Numbered from the stretch's first letter, positions 1-12,830 are shown. The stretch: DNA of 57,701 bases from Minisyncoccota bacterium (GCA_036517115.1 DATDYB010000010.1:1-57701), one strand, 5' to 3'. Notes: generated by a model not told the origin, from the letters alone. Numbers and translations: made by a program.

Positions 1-332
1 AGACTCTTTTTTACTTTCAAATATTTTTCGATCCGCTGTCGCTCATACAAATTCAAATGCACAAATTCCTTCATAAATTCATTTTACAGGTGTTCGGATT
101 CAAAGGTATATCTCCAAGTCGCCGGAACGGTCGAGGATACGGTTCCCGCGCACCAGCCTATAGAACCCTTAACGAGGTCTATAACTGGTAACAAGTTTCG
201 CTCATTTCTACTTAAAAATGAGCATTCTATTGGGTTTACAATTTATTTTGTGAATCCATTGAGTAAAAGTTCTCTACAAATAACATTATTCATAGCATCG
301 TGCCCCTTATTGTTGCCAGGCGGCAGGCTGCT

Positions 333-470
333 ATGAATAATCTACAAGACACTTCAGTCAGTGAAATTGTTCTAACAGATCCATACGAAGGAGAGGGAAT
401 CGAGGCGGTCACGGTGAACGGAGCAACTCTCATTTTATTCGAAAGAATGTTCAATTTCTCTCTCAACTGA
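333..470 (+). CDS. hypothetical small protein (45 aa)
   Basis: ATG333..TGA470, below the ORF-track cutoff, read by eye (MNNLQDTSVSEIVLTDPYEGEGIEAVTVNGATLILFERMFNFSLN). The ATG lies inside the 3' arm of a perfect 13-bp hairpin (285-297/329-341). Confidence 0.2.
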   Translation: MNNLQDTSVSEIVLTDPYEGEGIEAVTVNGATLILFERMFNFSLN

Positions 471-494
471 ATCTACAACAGGAGTTCTTTTACA

Positions 495-638
495 ATGAAA
501 CCAGAAACCCAACTCAAGGCGATGAAGTCGGTGCGCAAGCACACGATCTTCGTCGGGAAACCCCACAGTTCGCCGAAAGGTGAACGTGGATACAACCGCA
601 AACGCGAAAAACAAAACTGGAGAAAGGAGACCGTATGA
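495..638 (+). CDS. hypothetical small basic protein (47 aa)
   Basis: ATG495 is preceded by AGGAG (480-484). The stop TGA636-638 overlaps ATG635 of the next ORF (ATGA coupling). Read by eye; below the track cutoff. Confidence 0.3.
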   Translation: MKPETQLKAMKSVRKHTIFVGKPHSSPKGERGYNRKREKQNWRKETV

Positions 639-940
639 AAATCTTCATGGATATCGGAGACACGAAATATGTTCGAGAGGCGATCGAGCAGATCTTCACC
701 ACAACGGGTCAACTCGAGTTCGTGTCCAAGGTTCAGGAGGCCGACGCTATCATCGTGTCGGATCCTGAAAAAGTCGAGGTGTACTTGGAACACACTGATA
801 AGCGCGTGGCCCAGTTACTCTGGTGGAAACAAAGACCTTCGACTGCTCCGCAAGGAGATCGGTTCAAAGTTTTTGACGCCCTCGAGGCCAAAAAACTGCC
901 GGGCCTCATTGAGGCAATCAAATTCCTTAAAGGGGAATAA
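635..940 (+). CDS. hypothetical protein (101 aa)
   Basis: ORF-track entry with GGAGA upstream, translationally coupled to the preceding small ORF. No family recognised. Confidence 0.55.
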   Translation: MKIFMDIGDTKYVREAIEQIFTTTGQLEFVSKVQEADAIIVSDPEKVEVYLEHTDKRVAQLLWWKQRPSTAPQGDRFKVFDALEAKKLPGLIEAIKFLKGE

Positions 941-990
941 CGTGTGCCGTATCACACGCAGTCACAACGGTTGATCATACGGGATCAACC

Positions 991-1050
991 ACTGCTCTCC
1001 GGATGAAGTCCGGACTGACGAGTCCTTACGCAGATTCAGGACGAAAGCAG
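991..1050 (+). ncRNA. type III hammerhead ribozyme (HHR-A)
   Basis: Stem III 5' strand ACUGCU 991-996, cleavage-site C997. Stem I is UCCGGA/UCCGGA (998-1003/1009-1014, loop UGAAG). Core CUGACGA 1015-1021; stem II GUCC/GGAC (1022-1025/1039-1042); GAA 1043-1045; stem III 3' strand AGCAG 1046-1050. All invariant core positions are present. Confidence 0.8.
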
Positions 1051-1107
1051 AGTTTTGGAGGTTTCACCTCCAAAAAACTAGGTTCTTTAAAATTCAAAGT
1101 GTTCATT

Positions 1108-1168
1108 GGTTGATTGGTGCAATAAGGTCGTACGCCTTAGGCGGATTGCTTTATTGCATCAATCAACC
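1108..1168 (+). promoter_or_regulatory. long hairpin in the 5' leader of the receiver-like gene
   Basis: An 18-bp stem GGTTGATTGGTGCAATAA (1108-1125) / TTATTGCATCAATCAACC (1151-1168) with one G-U, and a structured 25-nt apex. It ends 19 nt before ATG1187. Confidence 0.5.
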
Positions 1169-1186
1169 ACAAACCAAAAAGGAAAA

Positions 1187-1816
1187 ATGAACACGAAACT
1201 AAACATCCTCGTCGTCGAAGACAAACCGGAAAACATCGCCGCAGCTAAAAAAATGCTTGCGGATCACAACCTCACCGTTGTCTCAGGGTTCGATGACGCG
1301 CTCACCGCGCTCAAACGAAACGGTTACGCGCGTAGGAAAGTGGAAGCGCCGGAGAAATTCGACGTGGTCCTCACCGACTGCCTGTATCCCAAAGGCGGCA
1401 CTGCTTGTATGGGACCCCGAGGGGAAGCAGTCGTTAACTGCCAAGGCGAAATGCCCTACGGCCCCATGGTGGTGTTTCACGCTATCGAAGCTGGAGTACC
1501 GCACATCGGGCTCATTACCCAAGGCAACCACCATGACGATCCGTTCGTCTTTGCGCTCGACAGCCTCAGAGGCTTCAAGAGTGAGAAGGTGAGTGTCGTC
1601 GTCACCAATGAGTGCGGCGAGTGTCTACACAAGGATACTCTCGAGGTTGTGGAGTACGACCACCCTAACGGCGAAAAGTTCTACGCATTGGAGAAAGAAG
1701 GAAAACTTCTTCGGGTGAAGAACTGGAAAGAGCTTCTCGACCGTACGTTGGGAACCCACGAGGTTACTGAGGACGGGAAGTGGCGCGAAGAACGCCGCGC
1801 ACAAGTCCAGATCTAA
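1187..1816 (+). CDS. receiver (CheY-like) domain protein, atypical, no output domain
   Basis: MNTKLNILVVEDKPEN...FDVVLTDCLYP resembles a REC N-terminus with acidic pocket and phospho-acceptor Asp context; the rest is divergent. ATG1187 with AAAGGA upstream was chosen over the track start 1106, which lies inside the hairpin. Confidence 0.55.
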   Translation: MNTKLNILVVEDKPENIAAAKKMLADHNLTVVSGFDDALTALKRNGYARRKVEAPEKFDVVLTDCLYPKGGTACMGPRGEAVVNCQGEMPYGPMVVFHAIEAGVPHIGLITQGNHHDDPFVFALDSLRGFKSEKVSVVVTNECGECLHKDTLEVVEYDHPNGEKFYALEKEGKLLRVKNWKELLDRTLGTHEVTEDGKWREERRAQVQI

Positions 1817-1855
1817 CTCTGGAGAGGTAGGGCGACTACCATCAATTGTCGCGAC

Positions 1856-1881
1856 CCGCAAACATTCGTTTGCGGTTTTTT
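1856..1881 (+). terminator. rho-independent terminator
   Basis: CCGCAAAC-ATTC-GTTTGCGG followed by TTTTTT. Confidence 0.8.
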
Positions 1882-1961
1882 ATTAGTAAATTCACACCTG
1901 TTAATATCTGTCTTTGTTTTTTTAGTATACTAACCTCATCGTTATTTAATTAATTTAAACC

Positions 1962-2510
1962 ATGGAAGAAAAGAAAGAGGAGAAAAAAGACGACTTTACA
2001 ATTTTTGATGATAACGGAGCACTAGTTAAGTTTCTCTCCGGCATTCTAGATAAAGGGAGTGCTCTTGTTCATCACGCCGACAGCCAAACTAACATTCTGA
2101 TGGGAATCAGTTCTGCTATTTTTATTTTCTCACTTTCAAGTTCACTGCAACGAGGTCATATGGAAATTCCTTTTCTCATCCTCATTCTTTTCAGCGCCTT
2201 TTCGTCATTAGCAGGTCTTTACGCCATTCATCCTCCACGTTTCATGCGAAAGAAGCAACAAGAGGAGAGCGTTATGTATAACAAAAAGATCTCTGATTTT
2301 ACCTCTTCCGACGACTATTTCAAGGTTCTCTGGAGCGTCATGTTAAACCGAACTGAAGTTGTCCGGCAGTACTCGATGGAAATCTATAATTTATATAAAT
2401 ATAACTACGGACCTAAACGAAAACTCTTTAAATTGGCGAGAAATCTTTTAATCGCGGGTCTGGTCTGCAGCCTTCTTTCATTTTTATTTATTACGTCCAA
2501 AACTTTTTAG
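1962..2510 (+). CDS. three-TM membrane protein, possibly DUF5706 / Pycsar-effector-like family
   Basis: Acidic N-terminus, then HHADSQTNILMGISSAIFIF and two further hydrophobic helices. The family assignment is from memory of the motif only. Confidence 0.55.
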   Translation: MEEKKEEKKDDFTIFDDNGALVKFLSGILDKGSALVHHADSQTNILMGISSAIFIFSLSSSLQRGHMEIPFLILILFSAFSSLAGLYAIHPPRFMRKKQQEESVMYNKKISDFTSSDDYFKVLWSVMLNRTEVVRQYSMEIYNLYKYNYGPKRKLFKLARNLLIAGLVCSLLSFLFITSKTF

Positions 2511-2527
2511 TTTATTTCGACAAGCGA

Positions 2528-2741
2528 GGTGAGGAAGCGGAGCTTCCGCAAGACTTTGAGCGTTCCGTCTGCGGAATGCGAGAAGTGTACCGTTCCTGTA
2601 AGGAAATCGCGGACGCTTTCCGATGCGGACATGAAATCCGAGTCGATGTCGAATCAAAAGGTGAGAAGCGAATACTTGGAGCTTCGCAAGACTCTGAGCG
2701 TTCTTTCGGAAGAATGCGAAGAGTGTACTGAACCTGTAAGG
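2528..2741 (+). repeat. tandem pair of ~80-nt structured repeat units (family 2, orientation a)
   Basis: Units 2528-2603 and 2660-2741 share GGTGAG-AAGCG..GGAGCTTC(C)GCAAGACT..hairpin..GTGTAC-N-CCTGTAAGG. They are the reverse complement of the units at 18464-18662. Confidence 0.7.
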
Positions 2742-2804
2742 TTGCATACCCCGCGACCCTGTCGCGGAATTTGGGTCCAGGGCTTGCTTTAGGGTAAATA
2801 CCTT

Positions 2805-3545
2805 TTATAGCTTTCCGTACAGTAACTTAAATATTTTCTTCTGAAAGTCAGCGAATTTTTCGTTTTCAATAACGAAACTTGTCTCAGTATTGAGGTCAAC
2901 AACCGCCACCTTGTGTCCGTAAATGAGCTGGATGATATTCTGATCGAATAAATCAAACTCTGAGGGTATAACTTTTGTCTTTTGGTTAAAATCGGGCTCG
3001 ACGTCCGCTTCTGTAGCTTTACTGCGTATCACATATCGTTCTAGATTTTTATTGTCTCTTTTTTCTCTATAATCTTTCGGTAAATATTTATTGGTTCTAG
3101 CCCGATCTTTCGATGAGGAATACCGGTAAAAAGCATCCCCTTTCTTGAGAGAGTCGACGATGTCTGAATACACCGATGAAATACCATTCCTTCCTTCGAG
3201 GAACTTTATGATGGGCTTATCTTTAGGTGCACGATAGAGATCTTCGAGGTCGGGTAGTGTTTCCTCAATATCTATACTCATTTCGCGCAATAACCCCCTA
3301 ATTTTCTCGGGATGTTCGGCAATATACTGTTTTCTCTTACCTTTTATGGTGATTGTTATAAGTTTGCGTTCTAGCAACAAGCCAAGCGCTTTGTAGACAA
3401 TTGGCCTGAACGTGCCTATATCTTTGGCTATATCGGAGATTGAAAGGGAAGTGCCTCGTTCTAAAAGATGGAGATACACTATTGTTTCAGGGTGGGTGAG
3501 CCCCAACTTCGTAAACAATTCCTTTATTTTATCAATTTTATCCAT
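2805..3545 (-). CDS. TrmB-family (winged-helix) transcriptional regulator
   Basis: The N-terminal wHTH (LGLTHPETIVYLHLLERGTSLSISDIAKDIGTFRPIVYKALGLLLERKLI) is typical of the TrmB family. Confidence 0.8.
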   Translation of the reverse strand: MDKIDKIKELFTKLGLTHPETIVYLHLLERGTSLSISDIAKDIGTFRPIVYKALGLLLERKLITITIKGKRKQYIAEHPEKIRGLLREMSIDIEETLPDLEDLYRAPKDKPIIKFLEGRNGISSVYSDIVDSLKKGDAFYRYSSSKDRARTNKYLPKDYREKRDNKNLERYVIRSKATEADVEPDFNQKTKVIPSEFDLFDQNIIQLIYGHKVAVVDLNTETSFVIENEKFADFQKKIFKLLYGKL

Positions 3546-3708
3546 ATTTGTATTAAATTAATTACACTTTTAGTTACTGAAAATACCCTTTTATAAAGCC
3601 ATAAATTTTATTAGTGCCCTTACTTACGTACATATTGTACTCCATACTATTACAATTTGTCAACTCTTCTGGTAGTCTTATGGGTAGAGGCTCTTCACAA
3701 CAAACAAT

Positions 3709-3717
3709 CCCCCCCCC
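3709..3717. repeat. C9 homopolymer tract
   Basis: Nine consecutive C residues end 16 nt upstream of ATG3734. The tract lies at the junction of two overlapping open frames (3614.. and 3657..). Confidence 0.9.
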
Positions 3718-3733
3718 AACAGAAAGGAAAAGT

Positions 3734-3916
3734 ATGCCAGATCGCGACAATAACAACGAACGCACTAGCGAATCCAGTTACCAGCAGCAACGAGATGCAT
3801 ACGATGACCGCTGGAGGTCATGGTTGCGCGGAAGCAGCACCGGTATGGACATCGACGGGCGGTGTATCAACCCCCGCGACAGCAGTTGCGATAGCAACGA
3901 ACGCGAGGAGTGCTAA
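3734..3916 (+). CDS. small charged Cys-containing protein (60 aa)
   Basis: ATG3734 has a good RBS (AAAGGAAAAGT). The RNY-like codon pattern favours this frame. The longer GTG/TTG-initiated versions in the track are not supported. Confidence 0.4.
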   Translation: MPDRDNNNERTSESSYQQQRDAYDDRWRSWLRGSSTGMDIDGRCINPRDSSCDSNEREEC

Positions 3917-3951
3917 ATGACTTACAGTTTGAGGGTCTGACCAAAACCCTC

Positions 3952-4033
3952 TCTGTCTCGAGATGTGTATCTCGACTGATGATTCCAGTCTTCGCTAAAG
4001 CTACGGCTTGGCAAGGCAAAAGGATGAAACAGA
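3952..4033 (+). ncRNA. type III hammerhead ribozyme (HHR-B) with enlarged stem II
   Basis: Stem III UCUGU 3952-3956 / ACAGA 4029-4033, cleavage-site C3957 (GUC). Stem I is UCGAGAU/AUCUCGA (3958-3964/3969-3975). Core CUGAUGA 3976-3982. Stem II is UUCC...GGAU (3983-3986/4022-4025) with a ~35-nt insert. GAA 4026-4028. Positions 10.1/11.1 form a U-U pair. Confidence 0.7.
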
Positions 4034-4112
4034 AGTTCTATGACACAACAACAAAAAGAAAGGTAATGCTATAAACATCAATTCATTAACTAACCTGTTA
4101 GAAGAAAATGGC

Positions 4113-4622
4113 GTGTCCACCAAAACATGGGGGACTGGAAAAGCGAAAACAATCCACCACCTACTCTCCGAAATTCAAGAGGGTGAAACTGTTCTGGAAG
4201 AGACGGAAAAAGGACTGGTCCGGAAAACCTCATTCCTCACCATCCATGTTTTATACAAGGATGAACGGGGAACGTTCAAACTCTTCGAGGAAAAACAAGT
4301 GTTCACGGACGGTAGAACACGAACACGAGATCAATCATGGAGCGTGGCAGAGAAGATGAAGGCCACCGACGTGAATATCCAGGCAGCCGCATTAAGAGCC
4401 CTTGAAGAAGAGTTAGGAATTATGACAGGAGTGAAATTTTTGGGTGAGATAACAACCACCGACGAACTCCGAGAATCACCATCATATCCCGGACTCACCG
4501 CGCAGTTCAAGATGTTCAACCTTACGGTGCACATCGACTATCATGAGTATCGGCCTGATGGTTACACGGAAGTACAGGAAGATAAATCAACGTACTTCAA
4601 ATGGAAGCATGTGGAACCTTAA
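4113..4622 (+). CDS. NUDIX-family hydrolase-like protein
   Basis: Partial Nudix box ...AALRALEEELGI... in a 169-aa protein. Start is GTG4113. Confidence 0.6.
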   Translation: MSTKTWGTGKAKTIHHLLSEIQEGETVLEETEKGLVRKTSFLTIHVLYKDERGTFKLFEEKQVFTDGRTRTRDQSWSVAEKMKATDVNIQAAALRALEEELGIMTGVKFLGEITTTDELRESPSYPGLTAQFKMFNLTVHIDYHEYRPDGYTEVQEDKSTYFKWKHVEP

Positions 4623-4667
4623 TCTGTTCCCATCGCTAAAAGGTTTGCTCGTTCCCTCAAAACGAGC

Positions 4668-4718
4668 TCTGTATCGAGATGCAGGTCTCGACTGATGATT
4701 CCAAAAGGATGAAACAGA
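4668..4718 (+). ncRNA. type III hammerhead ribozyme (HHR-C), minimal
   Basis: Stem III UCUGU 4668-4672 / ACAGA 4714-4718, cleavage-site A4673 (GUA). Stem I is UCGAGAU/GUCUCGA (4674-4680/4685-4691). Core CUGAUGA 4692-4698. Stem II is UUCC-AAAA-GGAU 4699-4710. GAA 4711-4713. Confidence 0.75.
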
Positions 4719-4781
4719 AATACTTTTTACACAACAAACAAACCCGACATCAAATAGATATCATCCACAACAAAGATTGCT

Positions 4782-5180
4782 ATGAAATACACTGATTACG
4801 ATCTCCGATTATGTGCAGGTGAAGAGTGGCTTCCCTCTAGTGAAGATACGCGTATGAGTTGGCGCAAGGCGATGGAGAAAACGTTACAAGATCCGAACCT
4901 ACGACTACCCCATTACTCTGATTTAATCCACGCTGAAGAAATGGCTCGGAAAAAACCGGAACTTCGTGAAAAATTTGGTGAATTGCAGAAAGGTTGGCCA
5001 TACTGGAGCGCCAACTCTGAAAATCATGATCCAAATTCAATGTATGCCTGCATTGTGACAGAGGATCATCTGCATTATAAATCACATACTCAAAAATACC
5101 TGGGGTACATGGTGAGATTCATTCGACAAACGAATCCAAAGAGCGTGGATAAATCACACAATAACGTAACAGAAGTATAA
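4782..5180 (+). CDS. DUF1566 (Lcl C-terminal)-like protein
   Basis: The pattern ...LRLPHYSDL...YWSANS...MYACIV...GYMVRFIRQ matches the remembered WRLP...YWSS...VR.VR signature. Confidence 0.5.
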   Translation: MKYTDYDLRLCAGEEWLPSSEDTRMSWRKAMEKTLQDPNLRLPHYSDLIHAEEMARKKPELREKFGELQKGWPYWSANSENHDPNSMYACIVTEDHLHYKSHTQKYLGYMVRFIRQTNPKSVDKSHNNVTEV

Positions 5181-5198
5181 GCTCAAAAATTTCAATTA

Positions 5199-5228
5199 CC
5201 TCTACAATAAATTGTAGGGGTTATTTTT
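5199..5228 (+). terminator. rho-independent terminator
   Basis: CCTCTACAAT-AA-ATTGTAGGGG followed by TTATTTTT. Confidence 0.8.
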
Positions 5229-5250
5229 AAGTCCAAAGCATTGGTGCTTT

Positions 5251-5658
5251 TTACAACAATTTCTTTTTTGCCAATTCTTCGGCGAGGAGTTGCGGCGAAA
5301 CGATCTTTACTCCATGAACGATCGTACCCCACAGTTTACCGAAATCTCTTTCATCGCCAGTGAGCAAATGGGTGGCCTGACCTGCGATCGCTCCGCCGAG
5401 GATGGGAATATCTTTCGAAGCGATCGTTATTTCAATAGTGGTGGTAAGCGATGAAACGATCTCACACTTTTTTACCAATGATTCTAAAGAGGGGACCGCT
5501 TTTGAGGCTTTCAAACGGAGGTTCCGATACGCCTCCTCTATCGCATATACATTAGTGAGACAAGTACCTTGATCCAAAAGAACACCTACGAACATCCGCA
5601 TTCTACTATGCGGCAAGGCGGCGCTAAAGAGAATGTTTGCGTCCAGAAATACCCTCAT
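5251..5658 (-). CDS. vapC: PIN-domain toxin (VapC-like)
   Basis: MRVFLDANILFSA... and ...LLTGDERDF carry the PIN acidic residues. It overlaps the upstream antitoxin ORF by 4 nt. Confidence 0.8.
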   Translation of the reverse strand: MRVFLDANILFSAALPHSRMRMFVGVLLDQGTCLTNVYAIEEAYRNLRLKASKAVPSLESLVKKCEIVSSLTTTIEITIASKDIPILGGAIAGQATHLLTGDERDFGKLWGTIVHGVKIVSPQLLAEELAKKKLL

Positions 5659-5888
5659 TTATTTTTTGGAAAATACTTTTTGAGCGAATCTTCGTTGTTT
5701 TTCTTAAATTCATTAAGTCGTTCATCTGTGTACATTTCAATAGGAAACGTGGCCCCACCTCGAAGGAGGATCCCTTCACTGGTTTCTTCCGCCAATACCT
5801 GACCTTCGCCTTGTATACCCAAGCGCTTCCTAAGCTCTTTAGGGAGGGTGAGAGTTCCTCGATCGTTTATATTTATTACTTTTGTCAT
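5655..5888 (-). CDS. vapB: AbrB/MazE/SpoVT-type antitoxin
   Basis: INDRGTLTLPKELRKRLGI is an AbrB-type swapped-hairpin motif. 77 aa, upstream of and overlapping the PIN gene. Confidence 0.8.
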   Translation of the reverse strand: MTKVININDRGTLTLPKELRKRLGIQGEGQVLAEETSEGILLRGGATFPIEMYTDERLNEFKKNNEDSLKKYFPKNK

Positions 5889-5933
5889 ATATTCAGTATT
5901 TCATACTTTCAGTAAAAATGCAACGTGCCTCCT

Positions 5934-6731
5934 CTAAATACTAATATCTATGGAAACAGGGCAATGGTCAGATCCCATCACATCTGCAAGAATTTCCGCT
6001 TTTTTTACTTTATTCTTTAGGGAGTTAGAAACTAATACATAATCTATCCTCCAGCCGACGTTCCGAGCGCGAGCATTGGACCAGTTGGACCACCAGCTGT
6101 AATGACCGTTGCCTTTGGTAAATATTCGAAAGGTATCAATGAAACCGGCATCGATAAAGGCTTGAAAGCCCAAGCGTTCTTCTTCGGTAAAACCTTTCAA
6201 ACCTTCGTTGGCATCCGGTCGAGCCAAGTCATCGGGGGTATGGGCAACGTTAAGATCGCCACAGAAAACAACGGGTTTCTTCTTTTCTAATTCCTTACAA
6301 TAGGCAAGAAAAGCAGGATCCCATTGCTTGTACCGAAGGGGAATACGGCTCAAGTCGTCCTTAGCATTGGGAGTGTAGACCGTCACTACGAAAAATTTTT
6401 CATATTCCGCTGCAATAACCCGACCTTCTGTCAGAGGATCGCCATATTTGTCCGCGCAGAGCCAAAATTTATTAACAATTTTCTCCGGTAAGCCATTTAA
6501 CACAGCCAGAGGCTTTGTCTTTGTAAAAATAGCCGTGCCGGAATAGCCTTTTTTTGTCGCTGAGTTCCAATATTCTTCGTACTGAGGCAAATCCACTTCG
6601 GACTGGTGTTGCTCGGCCTTGGTTTCCTGTAAACATAAAATATCCGGCGAATATTTCTCCACAAAAGGAAGGAAGAGGCCTTTTTTATGCACCGCGCGGA
6701 TGCCGTTTACATTCCAAGAGATGATGTTCAT
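5934..6731 (-). CDS. xth: exodeoxyribonuclease III
   Basis: MNIISWNVNGIRA..., CLQETK, ...GDLNVAH...SDHCPV are EEP/ExoIII motifs. Start moved to the internal Met at 6731. Confidence 0.92.
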   Translation of the reverse strand: MNIISWNVNGIRAVHKKGLFLPFVEKYSPDILCLQETKAEQHQSEVDLPQYEEYWNSATKKGYSGTAIFTKTKPLAVLNGLPEKIVNKFWLCADKYGDPLTEGRVIAAEYEKFFVVTVYTPNAKDDLSRIPLRYKQWDPAFLAYCKELEKKKPVVFCGDLNVAHTPDDLARPDANEGLKGFTEEERLGFQAFIDAGFIDTFRIFTKGNGHYSWWSNWSNARARNVGWRIDYVLVSNSLKNKVKKAEILADVMGSDHCPVSIDISI

Positions 6732-6790
6732 AAAAATAACTATAGCATCCAGTTTGTTTTCATAAAAATTGAGCATATAATGTAAGTATT

Positions 6791-7357
6791 ATGACACTAC
6801 AATACATTTCAGAGCGGGTTAAAAAGAATACTGAGAACGTGACGGGTCTTCACAACGAAATTTGGGGGGACTTTGCGCATATCAAAGGCAACGTTGCTCA
6901 TATTTACGGCGACGTAAGTATGCACAAACTCAAAGGTGATGTCTCGAACATTAAAGGTGATATTACCGGCGTATTTGGAAATGTAAGCAATATCCTCGGC
7001 GATGTATCACATATCCGAGGAGATCTTACTCTTATAAAAGGAAACGTAACGAACATCACCGGCGATTTGACCGGCATACTTGGCGACGTTTCCAATCTAC
7101 GCGGTTCAGTTACTGATATTCGCGGGGATGTGAGTAATATCCGGGGGGATGTAAGTGATTTGATTGGAAATGTTTCTCTTTTAAAGGGTGAGGTGTCTAA
7201 TATTGAGGGAAATGTGACGGATTTACGCGGTGATACAAGCAATATTTCCGGAAATGTCACTAATATCGAAGGTGATGTGAGTAATCTCAAGGGGAATGTG
7301 ACAGGAATTGAAGGTGACGCAAACGGACTCTCTGGAGCAGTAAAAGAAGTAGTGTAG
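6791..7357 (+). CDS. heptapeptide-repeat protein (G-[DN]-V-[ST]-[ND]-[IL]-x, 23 units)
   Basis: 23 consecutive units, 22 of them exactly 7 aa (GDVSNIK GDITGVF GNVSNIL GDVSHIR ...). No signal peptide. The repeats differ strongly at synonymous sites. Confidence 0.75.
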   Translation: MTLQYISERVKKNTENVTGLHNEIWGDFAHIKGNVAHIYGDVSMHKLKGDVSNIKGDITGVFGNVSNILGDVSHIRGDLTLIKGNVTNITGDLTGILGDVSNLRGSVTDIRGDVSNIRGDVSDLIGNVSLLKGEVSNIEGNVTDLRGDTSNISGNVTNIEGDVSNLKGNVTGIEGDANGLSGAVKEVV

Positions 7358-7408
7358 TGGCTATATGGCCTTGCAAAAAATAATCTTTTGTGCTATGCTA
7401 CTGGCACA

Positions 7409-7678
7409 ATGATTTCAAAGACGAAAAAGCAGAAAATAATCAAAGAAATCGGTATTCACGACAAGGATACTGGTTCTTCTGAAGTTCAGATTGGTATTTT
7501 GAGCAAACGTATTGACGAACTCGCTTCTCATTTGAAAAAACATCAAAAAGATAACCATTCTCGACGAGGACTCCTCGGCATGGTTGCAGCGCGACAGGCT
7601 CATTTGAAATATCTTCAAAAAAAGAATCCTAAGCGATACGGCGCTATTACCAAAAAGCTCGAGCTCAAGAAAAAATAA
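7409..7678 (+). CDS. rpsO: 30S ribosomal protein S15
   Basis: ...TGSSEVQIGILSKRIDELASHLKKHQKDNHSRRGLLGMVAARQAHLKYL... is a typical S15 sequence. The internal ATG7409 is used as start. Confidence 0.93.
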   Translation: MISKTKKQKIIKEIGIHDKDTGSSEVQIGILSKRIDELASHLKKHQKDNHSRRGLLGMVAARQAHLKYLQKKNPKRYGAITKKLELKKK

Positions 7679-7869
7679 CTAGGAAAATTAGCCTCACTTG
7701 CAATGCATGATTTTTGCACTACAAAAATCATGTCGCAAGATTTTTCGTAACGTAGTTATGAAAAAATTGCGACCAGCTCGGAGCTCTTGTTTTTTGATAT
7801 ACTAGTTGGAGAGATCATTGTATTTTATTAAGTAATTCATTTTTATAATTTTCGGACGTTTGCGCTTTC

Positions 7870-7904
7870 ATTCGTAGCCATTCGCATATTCGCACGCATT
7901 CGCA
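7870..7904. promoter_or_regulatory. four direct ATTCG(C/T)A repeats upstream of the NYN gene
   Basis: ATTCGTA at 7870, ATTCGCA at 7880, 7888 and 7898, spaced 8-10 nt apart and ending 14 nt before ATG7918. Confidence 0.4.
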
Positions 7905-7917
7905 GATTAGTATTTAT

Positions 7918-8514
7918 ATGTCAGTCATTAAACACAAGGAACAAAGAGTTGGTATTTTTATCGATGCGCAAAATTTGTATCATAGCGCCAAAAATTTATA
8001 TGGCGCACGGGTTAATTTCGGCCAAATCGTTAAAGACGCAGTAGCGGGCAGAGCGCTTATCCGCGCCGTTGCCTACGTCATCACCACCGAATCAGGCGAC
8101 GAAAAAGCCTTTTTCGAAGCACTCGGAAAAATGGGTATTGAGACTAAGACAAAAGATTTACAAATCTTCTCAAGCGGCAGTAAAAAAGCCGACTGGGACG
8201 TCGGTCTCGCCGTAGACGCCATCAAGATGGCTCCGAAGCTCGATACGGTCATCATCGTATCAGGGGACGGCGATTTCATTCCCCTCGTCGAATATCTAAA
8301 AATAAATGAGGGATGTCAGGTAGAGGCTATCGCCTTTGGAAAATCAGCATCAGGCAAGCTCAAAGAAGCGGCCGATGACTTCATCGACCTCGACCACAAC
8401 CCACGTAAATATCTTCTAGGCCATTTTGGTGGAGGGAGAAAACCTCGACACCACGCTTCGGAGCGAAGACAGGCGACTCAAGAAAAAGTTGCTGAGGTTA
8501 CGGAGGTGGAATAG
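7918..8514 (+). CDS. NYN (LabA/DUF88) domain protein
   Basis: RVGIFIDAQNLYHSA...DWDVGLAVDAI...VIIVSGDGDFIPLV are NYN/PIN-like motifs. Confidence 0.85.
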   Translation: MSVIKHKEQRVGIFIDAQNLYHSAKNLYGARVNFGQIVKDAVAGRALIRAVAYVITTESGDEKAFFEALGKMGIETKTKDLQIFSSGSKKADWDVGLAVDAIKMAPKLDTVIIVSGDGDFIPLVEYLKINEGCQVEAIAFGKSASGKLKEAADDFIDLDHNPRKYLLGHFGGGRKPRHHASERRQATQEKVAEVTEVE

Positions 8515-8560
8515 AGAATGTAAAAACTGTCCTACATCCGCAACGCGGATCGGACGAACA

Positions 8561-8590
8561 AAACCACTGGCTCTCGCCAGTGGTTTTGTT
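8561..8590 (+). terminator. rho-independent terminator
   Basis: AAACCACTGGC-TCTC-GCCAGTGGTTT followed by TGTTG. Confidence 0.7.
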
Positions 8591-8610
8591 GTAGTCAGCG
8601 TTTTTTTACA

Positions 8611-8636
8611 AGAAAAAACCACCTGTAAACAGGTGG
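8611..8636 (-). terminator. rho-independent terminator of the convergent gene
   Basis: On the minus strand, CCACCTG-TTTA-CAGGTGG followed by TTTTTTC. Confidence 0.7.
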
Positions 8637-8661
8637 CTGGAATTGGAAAGAGAACTTAGAA

Positions 8662-9063
8662 CTAAGGTTGCTCTCTCCATGCGTGATACGGGATAAAACC
8701 TGGATTACGCTCCATGAGCTTCACCAAGTCGATGCAATCCAGTGCGCGAGGATGATCGTCGACCCTCCCATGCACACATGGCGGTGGCGGTGCGGTAGTC
8801 ATGTGATGGACCCGTTCTTCAAGCAATATCTCTGTTTGCAGCTTCCGGTAAAGCTCTAGAGATTTGCTTGCTCTCCGCTCACGTTCCAACTCTTCGGGAG
8901 AGAGCGGGATGGGTTTGGTGGAATGGGCTCGGAGCGTATTCAGTACGGGGGGCACATACGGGAGGGTCACCCCCGCTTTAACCCTCCGCACGAACGTCGC
9001 GGCTTGTTGTGGGTTATCCCAACAATATGGCGGGAGAACGATGTCGTCGAGTATGAGTGGCAT
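8662..9063 (-). CDS. hypothetical protein (133 aa)
   Basis: Intact ORF with its own terminator. No family recognised. Confidence 0.55.
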   Translation of the reverse strand: MPLILDDIVLPPYCWDNPQQAATFVRRVKAGVTLPYVPPVLNTLRAHSTKPIPLSPEELERERRASKSLELYRKLQTEILLEERVHHMTTAPPPPCVHGRVDDHPRALDCIDLVKLMERNPGFIPYHAWREQP

Positions 9064-9126
9064 AGTATTTCTGTATTTCTACCCTTATTTATACCATATC
9101 TTGTTGTAAAAGTAAACAAGAGGCAA

Positions 9127-9425
9127 GAAAAATAGAGCAGAGGCGAGGCCCTACTCTATACGACCCACATGCGGAGCCAGACCCCCGAGACAGGGAATTC
9201 AGCCTGCGTATTTCTACAGCGACATAGCAGCACCGCTTTATCCAATACGCATTCGAAACGATCTTCCTCGCAAAATCGCAAGCACCTTAGTCTATTTGAC
9301 GGCTACAGCTTCGTACACTACCGTGTACCACACTGCCTTTGCTCCGAGAGAATGTATGGTTGCGGTACCAATCTCAGTATTCCTACCTGCACAATCAGGC
9401 CTCTTTCGAGCTTCATGTGGAGTCT
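9127..9425 (-). ncRNA. candidate ~300-nt structured RNA, possibly a reduced RNase P RNA
   Basis: Minus-strand promoter TTGACT (9460-9455), 17 nt, TACTAT (9437-9432). A 5'/3' closing helix GACUCCACAUG (9424-9414) / CAUGUGGGUC (9171-9162). Intrinsic terminator (9-bp stem 9159-9133, then U-run). Collinear motifs GAAAGAGGCCUG, CGGAGCAAAGGC, CAAAUAG and GUAGAAAUACGCAGGCUGAA recall RNase P CR-I/IV. No credible ORF. Confidence 0.4.
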
Positions 9426-9499
9426 AAATGGATAGTACCCTGTACCGCACAACAAGTCAACAATGCCAAGTCGAACTAGTTTTGTTACACTTCTAGCAA

Positions 9500-11368
9500 A
9501 TGCTAAAAAAAGAATACTCAATTGAGATCGGCGGGAAAATGTTGACAGCGGAATTTAATAACTTAGCGGAACGCGCACACGGATCGGTACTTGTGAAATA
9601 TGGCAACACCACGATCCTCGCTACTGCCGTGATGTCGACAAAGTCCAAGGAAAGTGGAGATTTTTTCCCGCTCACCGTTGACTTCGAGGAAAAATTTTAT
9701 GCAACAGGAAGAATCCTAGGTTCCCGCTTCGTACGAAGGGAGGGGAAGCCGTCCGACGAAGCGGTGCTTTCCGGCCGTATCGTCGACCGAACCATTCGCC
9801 CGCTCTTTGACCAGTGGATCCGACACGAGACGCAAGTCATCATCACCGTGCTCTCAATTGATGAAGAGGATCCTGATGTGCTGGGGGTTATCGGCGCTTC
9901 GCTCGCTCTCGGCGTGTCCAACATTCCCTGGAATGGACCGGTTGGAGCAATCCGTATTGGAAAAATAAAAGGGCAGAATGATTTTATCTTAAATCCCACC
10001 TACGCGTGGCGAGATACTCCCGATCTGGAATTTGAACTCGTAGCCTGCGGTCAACACGGGACTATCAACATGGTTGAACTCGGAGGCAACGAGACGGTTG
10101 AATCGACGGTCAGCAAAGCTCTTGTGCTCGCAGCAGAGGAAATTTCAAAGCTTCAAAAATTCCAGGAGACTATTATTAAGGAGATCGGCGTTCCTAAACG
10201 CTCTATACCACAACAAGTCATATCAAAAGAAGCAACAACACTTTTTGAAAAAGAAATCGCACCAAAAATGGATGAATACGTTTTCACCGGTATTCCAGGC
10301 GACTCAAAGATTTACGAGCTTAAAGATTTGTGGCTTGCGGTGTTCGAAAAAGCTTTGCCGGAAGAACACCGAGCGCTCGCGGAAAACTTTTTTGAAGAAA
10401 AAGTAAACGCTCTTATTCACCACGAAGCGGTTCTCTCGGGCAGACGTCCCGATGGCCGCGGCACCGACGACATCCGTCCGCTCTATGCGCAGGCCGGCGG
10501 CGTTTCCTCAATCCTTCACGGTTCAGGTATTTTCTTCCGTGGACAAACTCACATCCTCTCCGTCCTTACACTTGGTGGACCGCAGGATGTACAGCTTATC
10601 GAAGGAGTGGGGGAGGAAGAAAAGAAACGTTTCATGCACCATTACAACTTTCCTCCCTTTTCAACCGGAGAAACAGGGAGAACAGGGGCGAATCGTCGCA
10701 TGATCGGCCACGGCGCACTGGCAGAAAAAGCGCTTGCCCCTATGATCCCTTCACAGGAAACTTTCCCATACACTATCCGACTTGTTTCGGAGGCGCTGTC
10801 CTCCAACGGATCGACTTCTATGGCCTCCATTTGTGGCGGCACTTTGGCACTTATGGACGGTGGTGTACCGATCAAAAAACCTGTGGCAGGAATTTCTTCC
10901 GGTGTAATGATCGTTGACGAAAAAAATTACAAGGTACTTACCGACATTCAAGGACCAGAAGATCATTTTGGTGATATGGACTTCAAAGTAGCTGGAACAC
11001 GTGACGGTATCACCGCCATCCAAATGGATGTAAAAGTGAAGGGTATCCCTGTTTCGATTCTTACAGAAGCATTTGGGAAAGCGAAGATTGCTCGTCTCGC
11101 CATTCTTGATGTTATCGAATCAGCGATTAAAGAACCACGGAAAAGTCTCTCTTCTCATGCACCAAAAATCATCAGCATGACCGTCAAACAGGATCATATC
11201 GGACTCGTTATCGGACCAGGAGGGAAAACGATTAAAACCATCATTGAAAAAACAGCCGTTCTAGGCATCGACATTAACGACAATGGCATCATCCTCATCA
11301 CCGGCAAGAACGGTAGTGCAGAGAAGGCAGAAGCCATTATCAAGACTATGGTAGGGAACAGAGACTGA
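9500..11368 (+). CDS. pnp: polyribonucleotide nucleotidyltransferase (PNPase), ends after the KH domain
   Basis: Two RNase PH-like domains (GRILGSRF.., RRPDGR, HHYNFPPFSTGE, GHGALAE, NGSTSMA) and a KH domain (IGLVIGPGGKTIKTI). No S1 domain precedes the stop. Confidence 0.93.
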   Translation: MLKKEYSIEIGGKMLTAEFNNLAERAHGSVLVKYGNTTILATAVMSTKSKESGDFFPLTVDFEEKFYATGRILGSRFVRREGKPSDEAVLSGRIVDRTIRPLFDQWIRHETQVIITVLSIDEEDPDVLGVIGASLALGVSNIPWNGPVGAIRIGKIKGQNDFILNPTYAWRDTPDLEFELVACGQHGTINMVELGGNETVESTVSKALVLAAEEISKLQKFQETIIKEIGVPKRSIPQQVISKEATTLFEKEIAPKMDEYVFTGIPGDSKIYELKDLWLAVFEKALPEEHRALAENFFEEKVNALIHHEAVLSGRRPDGRGTDDIRPLYAQAGGVSSILHGSGIFFRGQTHILSVLTLGGPQDVQLIEGVGEEEKKRFMHHYNFPPFSTGETGRTGANRRMIGHGALAEKALAPMIPSQETFPYTIRLVSEALSSNGSTSMASICGGTLALMDGGVPIKKPVAGISSGVMIVDEKNYKVLTDIQGPEDHFGDMDFKVAGTRDGITAIQMDVKVKGIPVSILTEAFGKAKIARLAILDVIESAIKEPRKSLSSHAPKIISMTVKQDHIGLVIGPGGKTIKTIIEKTAVLGIDINDNGIILITGKNGSAEKAEAIIKTMVGNRD

Positions 11369-11410
11369 CAAAAATTGAATAGTTTTCTGGTACAATAGTA
11401 TTAATTGAAA

Positions 11411-11481
11411 ATGACAATTCCGATTGTCATCCCCGCGGATGCGGGGATCCAGAACTGGATTCCCGTTTTCACGGGAATGAC
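11411..11481 (+). repeat. multi-hairpin palindromic (REP-like) element, intergenic copy
   Basis: ATGACAAT-tccg-ATTGTCAT, CCCCGC-ggat-GCGGGG, ATCCAG-aa-CTGGAT, TCCCGT-tttc-ACGGGA, then ATGAC. Homologous to the element inside mutM (56416-56490). Confidence 0.8.
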
Positions 11482-11516
11482 AGCAAACTACCATCTTACA
11501 TTTTTAGTTTTTAAGT

Positions 11517-12830
11517 ATGCCCCCTGAAAAAGAAAATCACCCTCTCATACCCCCCAATCTACCCACAGGTATTCCACCGCTTACCTTTAAAACTCCTGTT
11601 TTCCCCGTTACTCCTCCCGTGCCAATCGCAGGAAAAACACAAACCGCGCCTGTTTTCGTGACGGGTGCGCCAAAAGTTTCTACTGCCATTCCGCAGCACC
11701 AAGAAGTGCCGCCCCCCGCACCGAAGAAAATTATCAATATTCTCGAAAAACCGGAATACGCTCAACAACCGATTACCCCCGTAATCCCAGCACCAACACC
11801 AAAAACAGTCGCCGCTTCCATTCCCGCACCTGTTATTAAAAATCCTGAACCGACCCCGCGTCCTGTTGTGGAATCACTGGTACAGCCACCGACAAAAGTA
11901 CCTGCAGCAGAACCTACACCAGAACCAATAGCACCAAATCCCTTTGTATATTTGCGACCACTCCGAACTTTTGAAGGAGATGTTGCTGACGCTGTAAAGA
12001 ATAAAAATGCGTCGGTAGTGAAAATTGCGGTAGCTGAAAGCGTGAAAAAACAGAAATCCCAAGAAACACTGGAGCCGCCAACTCCTGTGTTCAAAAACCT
12101 TGCTATTTTCCTAATGAGTTTGCTTATGGTGGGGGGTGGAGGATATCTCGTCTACACCTTCTACTACGTACCCAAGACAGTAGCTCCGGCAACAAGAGAA
12201 TTTGCTGTAGAAAGTCTGGTCGTTCCTGATACACAAAAAGAATTTCCGGTAAGTGCCGCCAATGCCGGCACCATAGGACAAGCTATTCTAGATACAAAGA
12301 CTGGAATGAACAAAACGTTACACGCAGTGACAGAACTGTATTTCACACAAACACAAAATAGTGTGAAGTCACTCATCGAAAGCTCTATTTTCGTAAATCT
12401 CTTGAGCCCGAATATCCCCTCTCCTTTTGTACGCAGCCTAAGTCCGCGTTTCATGTTTGGTTTTCATGAATTTAACGGCACACATCCATTTCTTATTCTC
12501 AAAACCACCTTTTATCAAAGCGCCTTTGCCGGCATGCTCAAATGGGAGGAGACTGTAGCAGACGATCTTAACACACTCTTCATCAGGCCTTCGCTTATTG
12601 CCAATACGGAAGCTGGCAAGCCTTCTACCACCGCCGATTTCTTGCGACGATCGAAACCTTTTGTTGATGTGGTGATTAAGAATAAAGACGTTCGCATGCT
12701 GACTGACGAGTATGAACATCCGATACTGCTCTACACCTTTGCCGATAAAGATACCATTATCCTCACCACTAATGAGTTTACGCTTAAGGAGATCCTTGAT
12801 CGAATGACCAATAGGAGGTTTGTACGGTAG
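11517..12830 (+). CDS. Pro-rich membrane-anchored hypothetical protein
   Basis: Pro/Thr/Val-rich N-terminal ~190 aa, one TM (IFLMSLLMVGGGGYLVYTFYYV), then a globular C-terminal domain. Confidence 0.7.
   Translation: MPPEKENHPLIPPNLPTGIPPLTFKTPVFPVTPPVPIAGKTQTAPVFVTGAPKVSTAIPQHQEVPPPAPKKIINILEKPEYAQQPITPVIPAPTPKTVAASIPAPVIKNPEPTPRPVVESLVQPPTKVPAAEPTPEPIAPNPFVYLRPLRTFEGDVADAVKNKNASVVKIAVAESVKKQKSQETLEPPTPVFKNLAIFLMSLLMVGGGGYLVYTFYYVPKTVAPATREFAVESLVVPDTQKEFPVSAANAGTIGQAILDTKTGMNKTLHAVTELYFTQTQNSVKSLIESSIFVNLLSPNIPSPFVRSLSPRFMFGFHEFNGTHPFLILKTTFYQSAFAGMLKWEETVADDLNTLFIRPSLIANTEAGKPSTTADFLRRSKPFVDVVIKNKDVRMLTDEYEHPILLYTFADKDTIILTTNEFTLKEILDRMTNRRFVR

Follow-up and report, generated by a model that had tools for sequence, protein, structure and literature searches.

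We identified a complete type III hammerhead ribozyme motif, HHR-C, on the plus strand of a 57,701-nucleotide (nt) stretch of DNA from Minisyncoccota bacterium (GCA_036517115.1 DATDYB010000010.1:1-57701), the whole of which was analysed and is referred to below as the window. HHR-C is probably a functional cis-acting ribozyme, and its likely role is intercistronic mRNA processing in a three-gene plus-strand operon (3735-3916, 4113-4622 and 4782-5180), whose intercistronic spacers hold HHR-C and a paralogous hammerhead, HHR-B, on either side of a gene for a Nudix-like protein. The assessment comes from sequence and comparative analysis, from which we also infer cleavage in vivo and an effect on RNA stability and expression. 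HHR-C and the hairpin that abuts it comprise the following parts:

4668-4718, plus strand: HHR-C, complete type III hammerhead of 51 nt (Rfam RF00008 match, type III descriptor, fold and family model R1)
4647-4667, plus strand: upstream hairpin of 7 base pairs (bp), GCUCGUU (4647-4653), loop CCCUCAA and AACGAGC (4661-4667), with no spacer to stem III (sequence and minimum free energy (MFE) fold)
4668-4672, plus strand: 5' strand of stem III, UCUGU, paired with ACAGA at 4714-4718; U4672 is position 16.1 (sequence and fold)
4673, plus strand: N17, an A, with the predicted scissile bond A4673/U4674 (hammerhead numbering)
4674-4691, plus strand: stem-loop I, UCGAGAU-GCAG-GUCUCGA, six Watson-Crick pairs and a U·G (sequence and family covariation)
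4692-4698, plus strand: catalytic core C3-A9, CUGAUGA (sequence)
4699-4710, plus strand: stem-loop II, UUCC-AAAA-GGAU, with U·U at 10.1/11.1, 3 bp UCC/GGA and loop AAAA (sequence)
4711-4718, plus strand: core G12 A13 A14 (4711-4713), then the 3' strand of stem III, A15.1-CAGA (4714-4718) (sequence and Rfam alignment)

All 11 of the 11 conserved core nucleotides are present in HHR-C, together with the A15.1-U16.1 pair (A4714-U4672), an A at N17 and three intact stems. Stems I and II are capped by loops and the 5-bp stem III is open, which is the type III topology, and the cleavage triplet is GUA, of the NUH class, with a predicted cut after A4673. A preliminary description of this DNA had proposed a 51-nt minimal hammerhead, a GUA triplet cut after A4673 and a preceding 7-bp hairpin, GCUCGUU/AACGAGC. 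The hammerhead is borne out by the sequence reading, a large covarying family and hammerheads at the same position in orthologous operons, the cleavage site by the sequence and hammerhead numbering, and the hairpin by the sequence at 4647-4667 and the MFE fold. Two details need amending: an A-to-G change in stem I relative to HHR-B does turn a U-A pair into U·G, but it is one-sided, with pairing kept, and is not compensatory as had been stated; and stem II has the letters given for it (UUCC-AAAA-GGAU), but its outermost pair is a U·U mismatch, leaving three Watson-Crick pairs only.

We searched the window with a type III descriptor consisting of the core, a stem I of at least 4 bp, stems II and III of at least 3 bp, U16.1 and an N17 other than G. 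Over the 57.7 kb, this descriptor returned exactly three matches, all on the plus strand (992-1050, HHR-A; 3952-4033, HHR-B; 4668-4718, HHR-C), while 30 shuffled windows gave five matches in total. At HHR-C the descriptor counted seven pairs in stem I, three in stem II and five in stem III. The Rfam model RF00008 (Hammerhead_3, clan CL00010) aligned end to end at 4666-4720 with 33.6 bits, corresponding to an E-value of 3.6e-5 in a 1-kb search and 0.002 in a search of the whole window on both strands. Run over the window at gathering threshold, Rfam reported tRNA only, and the hammerheads surfaced in E-value mode; the Rfam search of the window gave no matches to twister, pistol, hatchet or HDV-like ribozymes. 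Both the MFE and the centroid structures that ViennaRNA predicted for 4640-4725 consisted exactly of the hairpin plus the hammerhead three-way junction. The HHR-C motif is complete, and a chance origin is unlikely.

We then scanned public phage (IMG/VR) and genome contigs with the pattern CUGAUGAUUCC-N(4-34)-GGAUGAAAC, which leaves stems I and III unconstrained, and recovered 83 IMG/VR phage stretches and 100 genome stretches. Among 185 pattern matches, 109 had a loop of exactly 4 nt, where chance would scatter them across 31 gap lengths, and 94 of these 109 satisfied the full type III descriptor. Genome matches with an HHR-C-like architecture came mostly from metagenome-assembled genomes of Patescibacteria (Saccharibacteria, Paceibacterota, Woesebacteria, Taylorbacteria and Parcubacteria). 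HHR-C is, as judged from sequence, a member of a family of more than 150 predicted hammerheads of near-identical architecture in IMG/VR phage contigs and Patescibacteria genomes.

In an alignment of 66 distinct 54-nt members, HHR-C among them, 98.6% of cells were paired, 199 cells were changed on both sides (47 when shuffled) and the covariation score was 0.619 (0.198 when shuffled); all slid controls collapsed. Covariation involved six of the seven pairs of stem I and three of the five of stem III. U·G and G·U pairs are frequent in the family, on the sense strand only, and these frequent G·U pairs show the constraint to be on the RNA of that strand and not on the DNA. N17 is A in 84 members, C in 37, U in 13 and G in none. 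A covariance model, R1, was built from the family alignment with HHR-C in its seed and HHR-B outside it; it scored HHR-C at 73.2 bits (as a seed member), HHR-B at 60.3 and HHR-A at 26.1, and its scan of the window found nothing beyond these three. Across the fetched loci (denoted by L numbers), R1 detected 119 phage copies (83 IMG/VR loci) and 71 genome copies, with same-strand clusters of five hammerheads in L018, six or seven in L178 and four each in L013 and L079. Open reading frames (ORFs) neighbouring family hammerheads are on the ribozyme strand in 78% of cases; median distances are 36 nt to the stop codon upstream and 39 nt to the ORF that follows.

Close relatives of the operon share a layout of an opposite-strand TrmB-like regulator, a small ORF, a hammerhead, the Nudix-like gene, a hammerhead and a third ORF. 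Among homologs of the Nudix-like protein with 50-56% identity, a hammerhead lies directly 3' of the gene in L196/L127, L204, L208, L214 and L145, which belong to the following ortholog loci:

L196-L199 (the same as L209/L210; genome contig L127): Nudix-like identity 52%
L203-L205: Nudix-like identity 50%
L208: Nudix-like identity 54%
L214: Nudix-like identity 51%
L145: Nudix-like identity 56%; downstream ribozyme only

Compared at the position of HHR-C, with the window given first, stem I reads UCGAGA/UCUCGA, UCGCGA/UCGCGG, CCGAGG/CCUCGG, UCGCGA/UCGCGA, CUCCGA/UCGGAG and CCGAGA/UCUCGG. Core position N7 reads U, A, U, G, U and U, the remaining core being invariant in the five orthologs, and N17 reads A, C, C, A, C and U, never G. 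The orthologs carry compensatory changes in stems I and II; the stem II of L204, GUCG-GAUA-CGAC, has G-C restored at 10.1/11.1 and an inner C-G swapped to G-C. An invariant core with a free N7 and compensatory stems is the mark that purifying selection leaves on a ribozyme.

Some metagenome assemblies of the operon (L002, L003, L005 and L006) begin or end inside HHR-B or HHR-C, and one contig comprises 3957-4714 only. We rejected these ends as evidence of RNA cleavage, since the starts fall at 3953 or 3957 and not at 3958, and L005 ends at 4714 and not at 4673. They are best explained as repeats breaking assemblies.

The hairpin that abuts stem III extends to the family as well. Over 125 distinct members, the mean fold energy was -10.5 kcal/mol for the 34 nt upstream of the ribozyme, -1.9 kcal/mol for the 34 nt downstream and -4.4 kcal/mol for shuffled upstream sequence. 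A hairpin of -5 kcal/mol or better was found upstream of 105 of 127 members, and in 94 of these 105 the last paired base lies 4-8 nt from the cleavage site (median 6; 6 in HHR-C). The hairpin stem of the orthologs, GAGGGUU/AACCCUC, differs from that of the window by three double compensatory changes, five of the seven pairs covary in an 11-sequence alignment, and all three hammerheads in the window have an upstream hairpin. On this comparative sequence evidence, the abutting hairpin is a structurally conserved part of the element. We considered an intrinsic terminator at 4647-4667 and rejected it, as there is no U-tract, the terminator scan did not list the hairpin and what is conserved is its placement with respect to stem III. 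A pseudoknot between an upstream GGUUY and AACC in the hairpin loop was also set aside; it fits L173, L141, L208 and L214 and not the copies in the window. The upstream hairpin loops end in AAAA, and a contact between loop and tail across stem III is conceivable.

On the other side of the ribozyme, G[A/T/C]TCTTT occurs 1-5 nt past stem III in 29 of 53 genome-derived copies (55%, mostly Patescibacteria) and in none of 81 phage copies, against a background of 1.4% of 52-nt windows. The downstream-motif sites are:

1082-1090, 4035-4043 and 4721-4729 in the window
loci L091-L190, L196, L204, L208 and L214

In the window, the strict form of the motif is found at HHR-A only, where it is placed after an extra hairpin, and HHR-C is without it. 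As a general signal of the window genome, GWTCTTTRA was rejected (four matches versus 4.0 expected); it is enriched only past the hammerheads of other Patescibacteria loci. The IMG/VR phage copies (L008-L090) have a different upstream hairpin, often GUGUCUUCAAAGACAC, plus an AACUUAAW-like sequence soon past stem III. This difference in the flanks of the phage copies indicates that the flanks are lineage-specific while the ribozyme is common to the lineages.

HHR-B and HHR-C have stem I, the core and the base of stem II in common. The preliminary description had placed them on both sides of the Nudix cistron, and they do bracket the ORF at 4113-4622, with predicted cleavage sites 716 nt apart. 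The operon and its first hammerhead are laid out as follows:

3735-3916, plus strand: small first operon ORF, 60 amino acids (aa), upstream of HHR-B (ORF call)
3931-3951, plus strand: hairpin upstream of HHR-B, GAGGGU...ACCCUC (sequence and fold)
3952-4033, plus strand: HHR-B, paralogous type III hammerhead with a predicted cut after C3957 and a 35-nt stem II extension (descriptor and R1)
4113-4622, plus strand: Nudix-fold protein gene between HHR-B and HHR-C (Pfam, AlphaFold 2 (AF2) model and Foldseek)
4782-5180, plus strand: third ORF, 132 aa, downstream of HHR-C, with a terminator-like hairpin after it at 5198-5221 (ORF call and terminator scan)

The name given to the bracketed gene is acceptable. 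An AlphaFold model based on 23 homologs reached a predicted local distance difference test (pLDDT) score of 93.8, and its top 50 Foldseek matches in the PDB are all of the Nudix fold, with template modelling (TM) scores mostly of 0.35-0.5; most are hydrolases, including RppH, Ap4A hydrolases and ADP-ribose diphosphatases. The profile of the ORF also matches MutT/Nudix chains. At the level of sequence the protein is divergent and the label weak, as the Pfam NUDIX match (19.4 bits) falls below the cut-off of 21.1. The ORF is also missing about 17 N-terminal residues of its homologs, which the in-frame codons at 4068-4112 still align with (…SLTNLLEENG). Within the start region (4066-4137) there is no in-frame ATG, GTG or TTG in 4068-4112, and an ATG at 4066 is out of frame (+1), giving M-L-stop. 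The region is either frameshifted, with a restart at GTG 4113, or has a non-canonical start.

Under the processing model, the 51-nt motif in the nascent operon RNA would fold into the three-way junction and cut itself after A4673, HHR-B would likewise cut after C3957, and a Nudix-like RNA of about 716 nt would be released. The upstream product of HHR-C cleavage would end in the 7-bp hairpin, a 6-nt tail and a 2',3'-cyclic phosphate, and the downstream product would start with a 5'-OH flush in the stem I hairpin, so that both products would be capped at their ends by virtue of the type III topology and the upstream hairpin. A single-stranded 3' tail of 6 nt is too short for loading by PNPase, RNase II or RNase R. 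The stability and translation of the adjoining cistrons would likely be uncoupled. More tentatively, and with doubt outweighing confidence, the sequences suggest a three-part module for intercistronic punctuation, made up of the structurally conserved hairpin against stem III, a minimal, U·U-tolerant (10.1/11.1) type III hammerhead and, in Patescibacteria, a conserved GWUCUUU/A-C-rich leader, which would cap both products with terminal hairpins and turn operons of Patescibacteria and their phages into independently stable, freely reshufflable single-gene mRNAs. The host operons that bear the module are often under a divergent TrmB-family regulator.

Several observations weigh against HHR-C as a functional processing ribozyme. 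Its RF00008 score is below the gathering threshold of 48.5 bits. U4699·U4710 provides no Watson-Crick pair at 10.1/11.1, beside the core, and in 42 unselected neighbours the majority at these positions is G-C (G-C 34, U·U 6, A·A 1, C-G 1). The fifth position of loop 1 is G in HHR-C alone of 111 members and U in 102 of the 111 and in every ortholog. No hammerhead occurs in L200, L201/L202, L206 or L211-L213, despite Nudix-like homologs that are equally close. Lastly, in Bacillus the product with a 5'-OH that glmS ribozyme cleavage leaves is degraded, not stabilised.

These points differ in what they say about the element. The RF00008 threshold is an operational cut-off with nearly the whole subfamily beneath it: among about 30 subfamily copies in nine loci, one passes, and copies with G-C also fall below. 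The family search pattern itself fixed U·U at 10.1/11.1, and the 42 neighbours, which lie outside the pattern, served as the check on this. Copies with U·U have covarying inner stem II pairs (UUCG/CGAU, UACC/GGUU and UUGC/GCAU), HHR-B also carries U·U, and the orthologs at the HHR-C position have U·U, A-U or G-C; as far as comparative sequence can tell, U·U at 10.1/11.1 is a recurrent, maintained and tolerated variant in the family, not a defining failure. The curation of Perreault et al. in 2011 rejected hammerhead candidates that were mispaired there (PMC3088659). The operons with equally close Nudix-like homologs and no hammerhead indicate that it is dispensable. About 70 further loci with distant Nudix-like homologs (<49% identity) are also without hammerheads, and since so many Nudix-like operons lack them, the hammerheads are an accessory of the operon lineage, not of the protein family. 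By analogy with glmS, ribozyme cleavage can also trigger decay, and the direction of the stability effect could be either.

The deviations of HHR-C could mean that this copy is crippled or very slow in an otherwise functional family, with its loop-loop contact lost (GUGU to GCAG) in addition to the mismatch at 10.1/11.1 and most transcripts left uncut, which we judge unlikely. Fast cleavage by type III hammerheads at cellular Mg2+ needs loop-loop contacts, namely a reverse Hoogsteen pair and a U:A:U triple, and loop changes can lower hammerhead cleavage by orders of magnitude (PMC6155905). The loop-1 hexamer of HHR-C, UGCAGG, is unique among the 111, the family having UGUGUA, UGUGUG or UGAGUG (consensus UGUGUR), and GUGU is present in all five orthologs; the disturbed start region of the Nudix-like gene also hints at relaxed selection on the cassette. 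Loop sizes suit loop-loop contacts (6 nt in loop 1 and 4 nt in loop 2), the AAAA of loop 2 fits the family's RAAA, and loop 2 and the first two nucleotides of loop 1 (UG) are kept, in a ribozyme whose core, A15.1-U16.1 pair, N17 and stems are all intact. Other members deviate in loop 1 too (UGUGCA, UGUACG, UGUGAA and UAGUUG). A further point against a decaying copy is that 14 contigs, from several samples, encode the same Nudix-like protein, and the six places read match the window except for four differences at one contig tip. Judged from its sequence, the atypical loop 1 may slow the cleavage of HHR-C.

HHR-C could also cleave and yet be a regulated or destabilising device that lowers or tunes a flanking cistron, rather than one that yields stable monocistronic RNAs, for example through 5'-OH-dependent decay or at a rate set by ribosome traffic or alternative pairing with motifs in the flanks. 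Precedent for ribozyme-triggered decay in bacteria exists in glmS (PMC6765202), the stop codon lying about 36 nt (median) upstream of the ribozyme means that terminating ribosomes could affect folding, and the downstream G[A/U/C]UCUUU (55% of genome copies versus 1.4%) could pair with the strand of loop 2 and stem II or with the Shine-Dalgarno region. HHR-C, though, lacks the strict motif, it is minimal with no evident ligand-binding or switch domain, and conserved terminal hairpins on both products favour protection, so we hold such a device to be quite improbable. Far less credible is a role as a DNA-level repeat or cassette boundary for recombination, or as part of a circular or mobile RNA, that is, a 716-nt retrozyme- or viroid-like molecule. 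Such a role would suit the reshuffling of hammerhead-delimited cistrons, with only the TrmB and Nudix-like genes syntenic, and the breaking of metagenome contigs at the modules, and hammerheads of type III are a typical feature of circular RNAs (bioRxiv 10.1101/2024.05.16.594327). However, a DNA site has no need of conservation by RNA rules (sense-only G·U, an invariant core, a free N7 and an N17 that is never G) or of hammerheads co-oriented with genes, and the shuffling may be a by-product of repeated RNA elements. Perreault et al. sought spliced or circular products of clustered hammerheads and found none (PMC3088659).

The surroundings of the operon include a third hammerhead and a divergent regulator:

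969-1050, plus strand: hairpin (969-990) and HHR-A (992-1050), with core CUGACGA, G-C at 10.1/11.1 and a predicted cut after C997 (RF00008 31.8 bits, descriptor and R1)
2805-3545, minus strand: TrmB-family regulator, divergent from the operon (Pfam TrmB, E 2.7e-7)

HHR-A has one hairpin before it (969-990) and another after it (1053-1075), and the fold of the entire 116-nt stretch has a z-score of -4.6. In at least 10 loci of Patescibacteria (L145, L178, L179, L130, L139, L171, L121, L126, L108 and L180), a divergent TrmB-family regulator lies beside an operon punctuated by hammerheads, a pattern suggestive of a regulated cassette operon that recurs. Synteny across operons is confined to the TrmB and Nudix-like genes, and the first and third ORFs are not conserved. 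Hammerhead-delimited cistrons have been reshuffled: the gene after HHR-A (1187-1816) has a homolog past the fourth hammerhead of L208 (3091-3432), and the third ORF (4782-5180) has a 38% identical homolog between two hammerheads of L178 (5086-5430). PHROGs and NCBIfam gave no match for the Nudix-like gene or for the first (3735-3916) or third (4782-5180) ORF, and the first ORF had no family matches in the Pfam, PHROGs and NCBIfam searches. A run of nine C at 3709-3717, in the spacer between the TrmB-like gene and the operon and just upstream of the ribosome-binding site of the first ORF, may be prone to slippage.

The local 9 kb is a low-GC run of small accessory genes (PIN, NYN, PycTM-like and TrmB regulator) ahead of rpsO and pnp. 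It includes a PIN-domain gene preceded by a small partner ORF, likely a toxin-antitoxin pair, an Exo_endo_phos nuclease/phosphatase and an NYN-domain protein (5251-5888 on the minus strand, 5934-6776 on the minus strand and 7918-8514 on the plus strand). The ORF at 1962-2510 matches the Pycsar transmembrane effector PycTM in PADLOC (best E-value 1.3e-7) and, weakly, Pfam PycTM, with no recognisable cyclase beside it. On the window, PADLOC reported only this PycTM-like ORF and the NYN protein, and on that result the operon is not called a known defence system. The large genes of the window are chromosomal (PNPase, ComM-like, UvrD, a TraG/VirB4-like ATPase, PBP1A, PilB and PolA), and window positions 1-12000 had no megablast match in phage records, so the DNA is not that of a known phage. 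The syntenic and related loci suggest that the window comes from Patescibacteria.

Since 2010-2011, hammerheads have been known to lie scattered in the operons of bacteria and phages. For clustered copies on either side of single prophage genes, a role in cutting long transcripts down to gene-length mRNAs has been proposed (PMC3088659; also PMC6155905 and PMC6765202), and the processing model for HHR-C fits this idea; the biological role of prokaryotic hammerheads is still called an open question (PMC6155905, PMC6765202). Clustered hammerheads flanking small ORFs are a known arrangement, of which HHR-C is one more case, possibly a slow one. The likeness to the clustered prokaryotic and prophage hammerheads (PMC3088659, PMC6155905) lies in several same-strand copies that bracket small, poorly conserved genes and in a strong phage link. 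In contrast, surveys of those elements stress types II and I and reject mispairs at 10.1/11.1, whereas the HHR-C family is of type III and often has U·U; the family also has its own hairpin abutting stem III and is abundant in Patescibacteria chromosomes beside a TrmB-family regulator. With type III hammerheads in RF00008, HHR-C has in common the core (CUGANGA...GAAA), the junction topology, A15.1-U16.1, the NUH triplet and the loop sizes; it differs in its sub-threshold score, in U·U in place of G-C at 10.1/11.1, in a stem II of 3 bp plus a mismatch and in being DNA-encoded in a bacterial operon and not within a circular RNA replicon. Retrozymes and viroid-like circular RNAs are alike in type III topology, in stem and loop sizes and in having two direct copies around a segment of 600-1000 nt. 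The segment between HHR-B and HHR-C, however, is a protein-coding chromosomal cistron, with no repeats like long terminal repeats beyond the ribozyme module. In synthetic RiboJ-type insulators, cleavage by a type III hammerhead that is set, with an adjacent hairpin, upstream of a coding sequence gives the mRNA a defined, structured 5' end whatever sequence lies upstream. The extra hairpin of those parts is 3' of the ribozyme, while that of HHR-C is 5' and would stay with the upstream fragment, and HHR-C is natural.

In the searchable literature we found no paper linking hammerheads to Patescibacteria, the candidate phyla radiation (CPR) or Saccharibacteria. Several features appear undescribed there: how abundant the type III subfamily is in Patescibacteria, its frequent U·U, the abutting conserved hairpin, the association with TrmB operons and the Patescibacteria-specific GWUCUUU motif. 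Standard Rfam annotation misses the subfamily, which therefore probably goes unannotated in the majority of genomes of Patescibacteria and phages. As a comparative case the locus is clean: in several organisms one conserved gene has hammerheads in both flanking spacers, at matching positions and with textbook covariation, and the conserved hairpin stands where a cut would leave the new 3' end shielded from exonucleases. If the processing model is true, very small genomes and phages would be able to set the expression of adjacent small genes separately without extra promoters or terminators, and the elements would be compact natural insulator parts. If the three-part punctuation module is true as well, prokaryotic hammerheads would have a defined, testable function.

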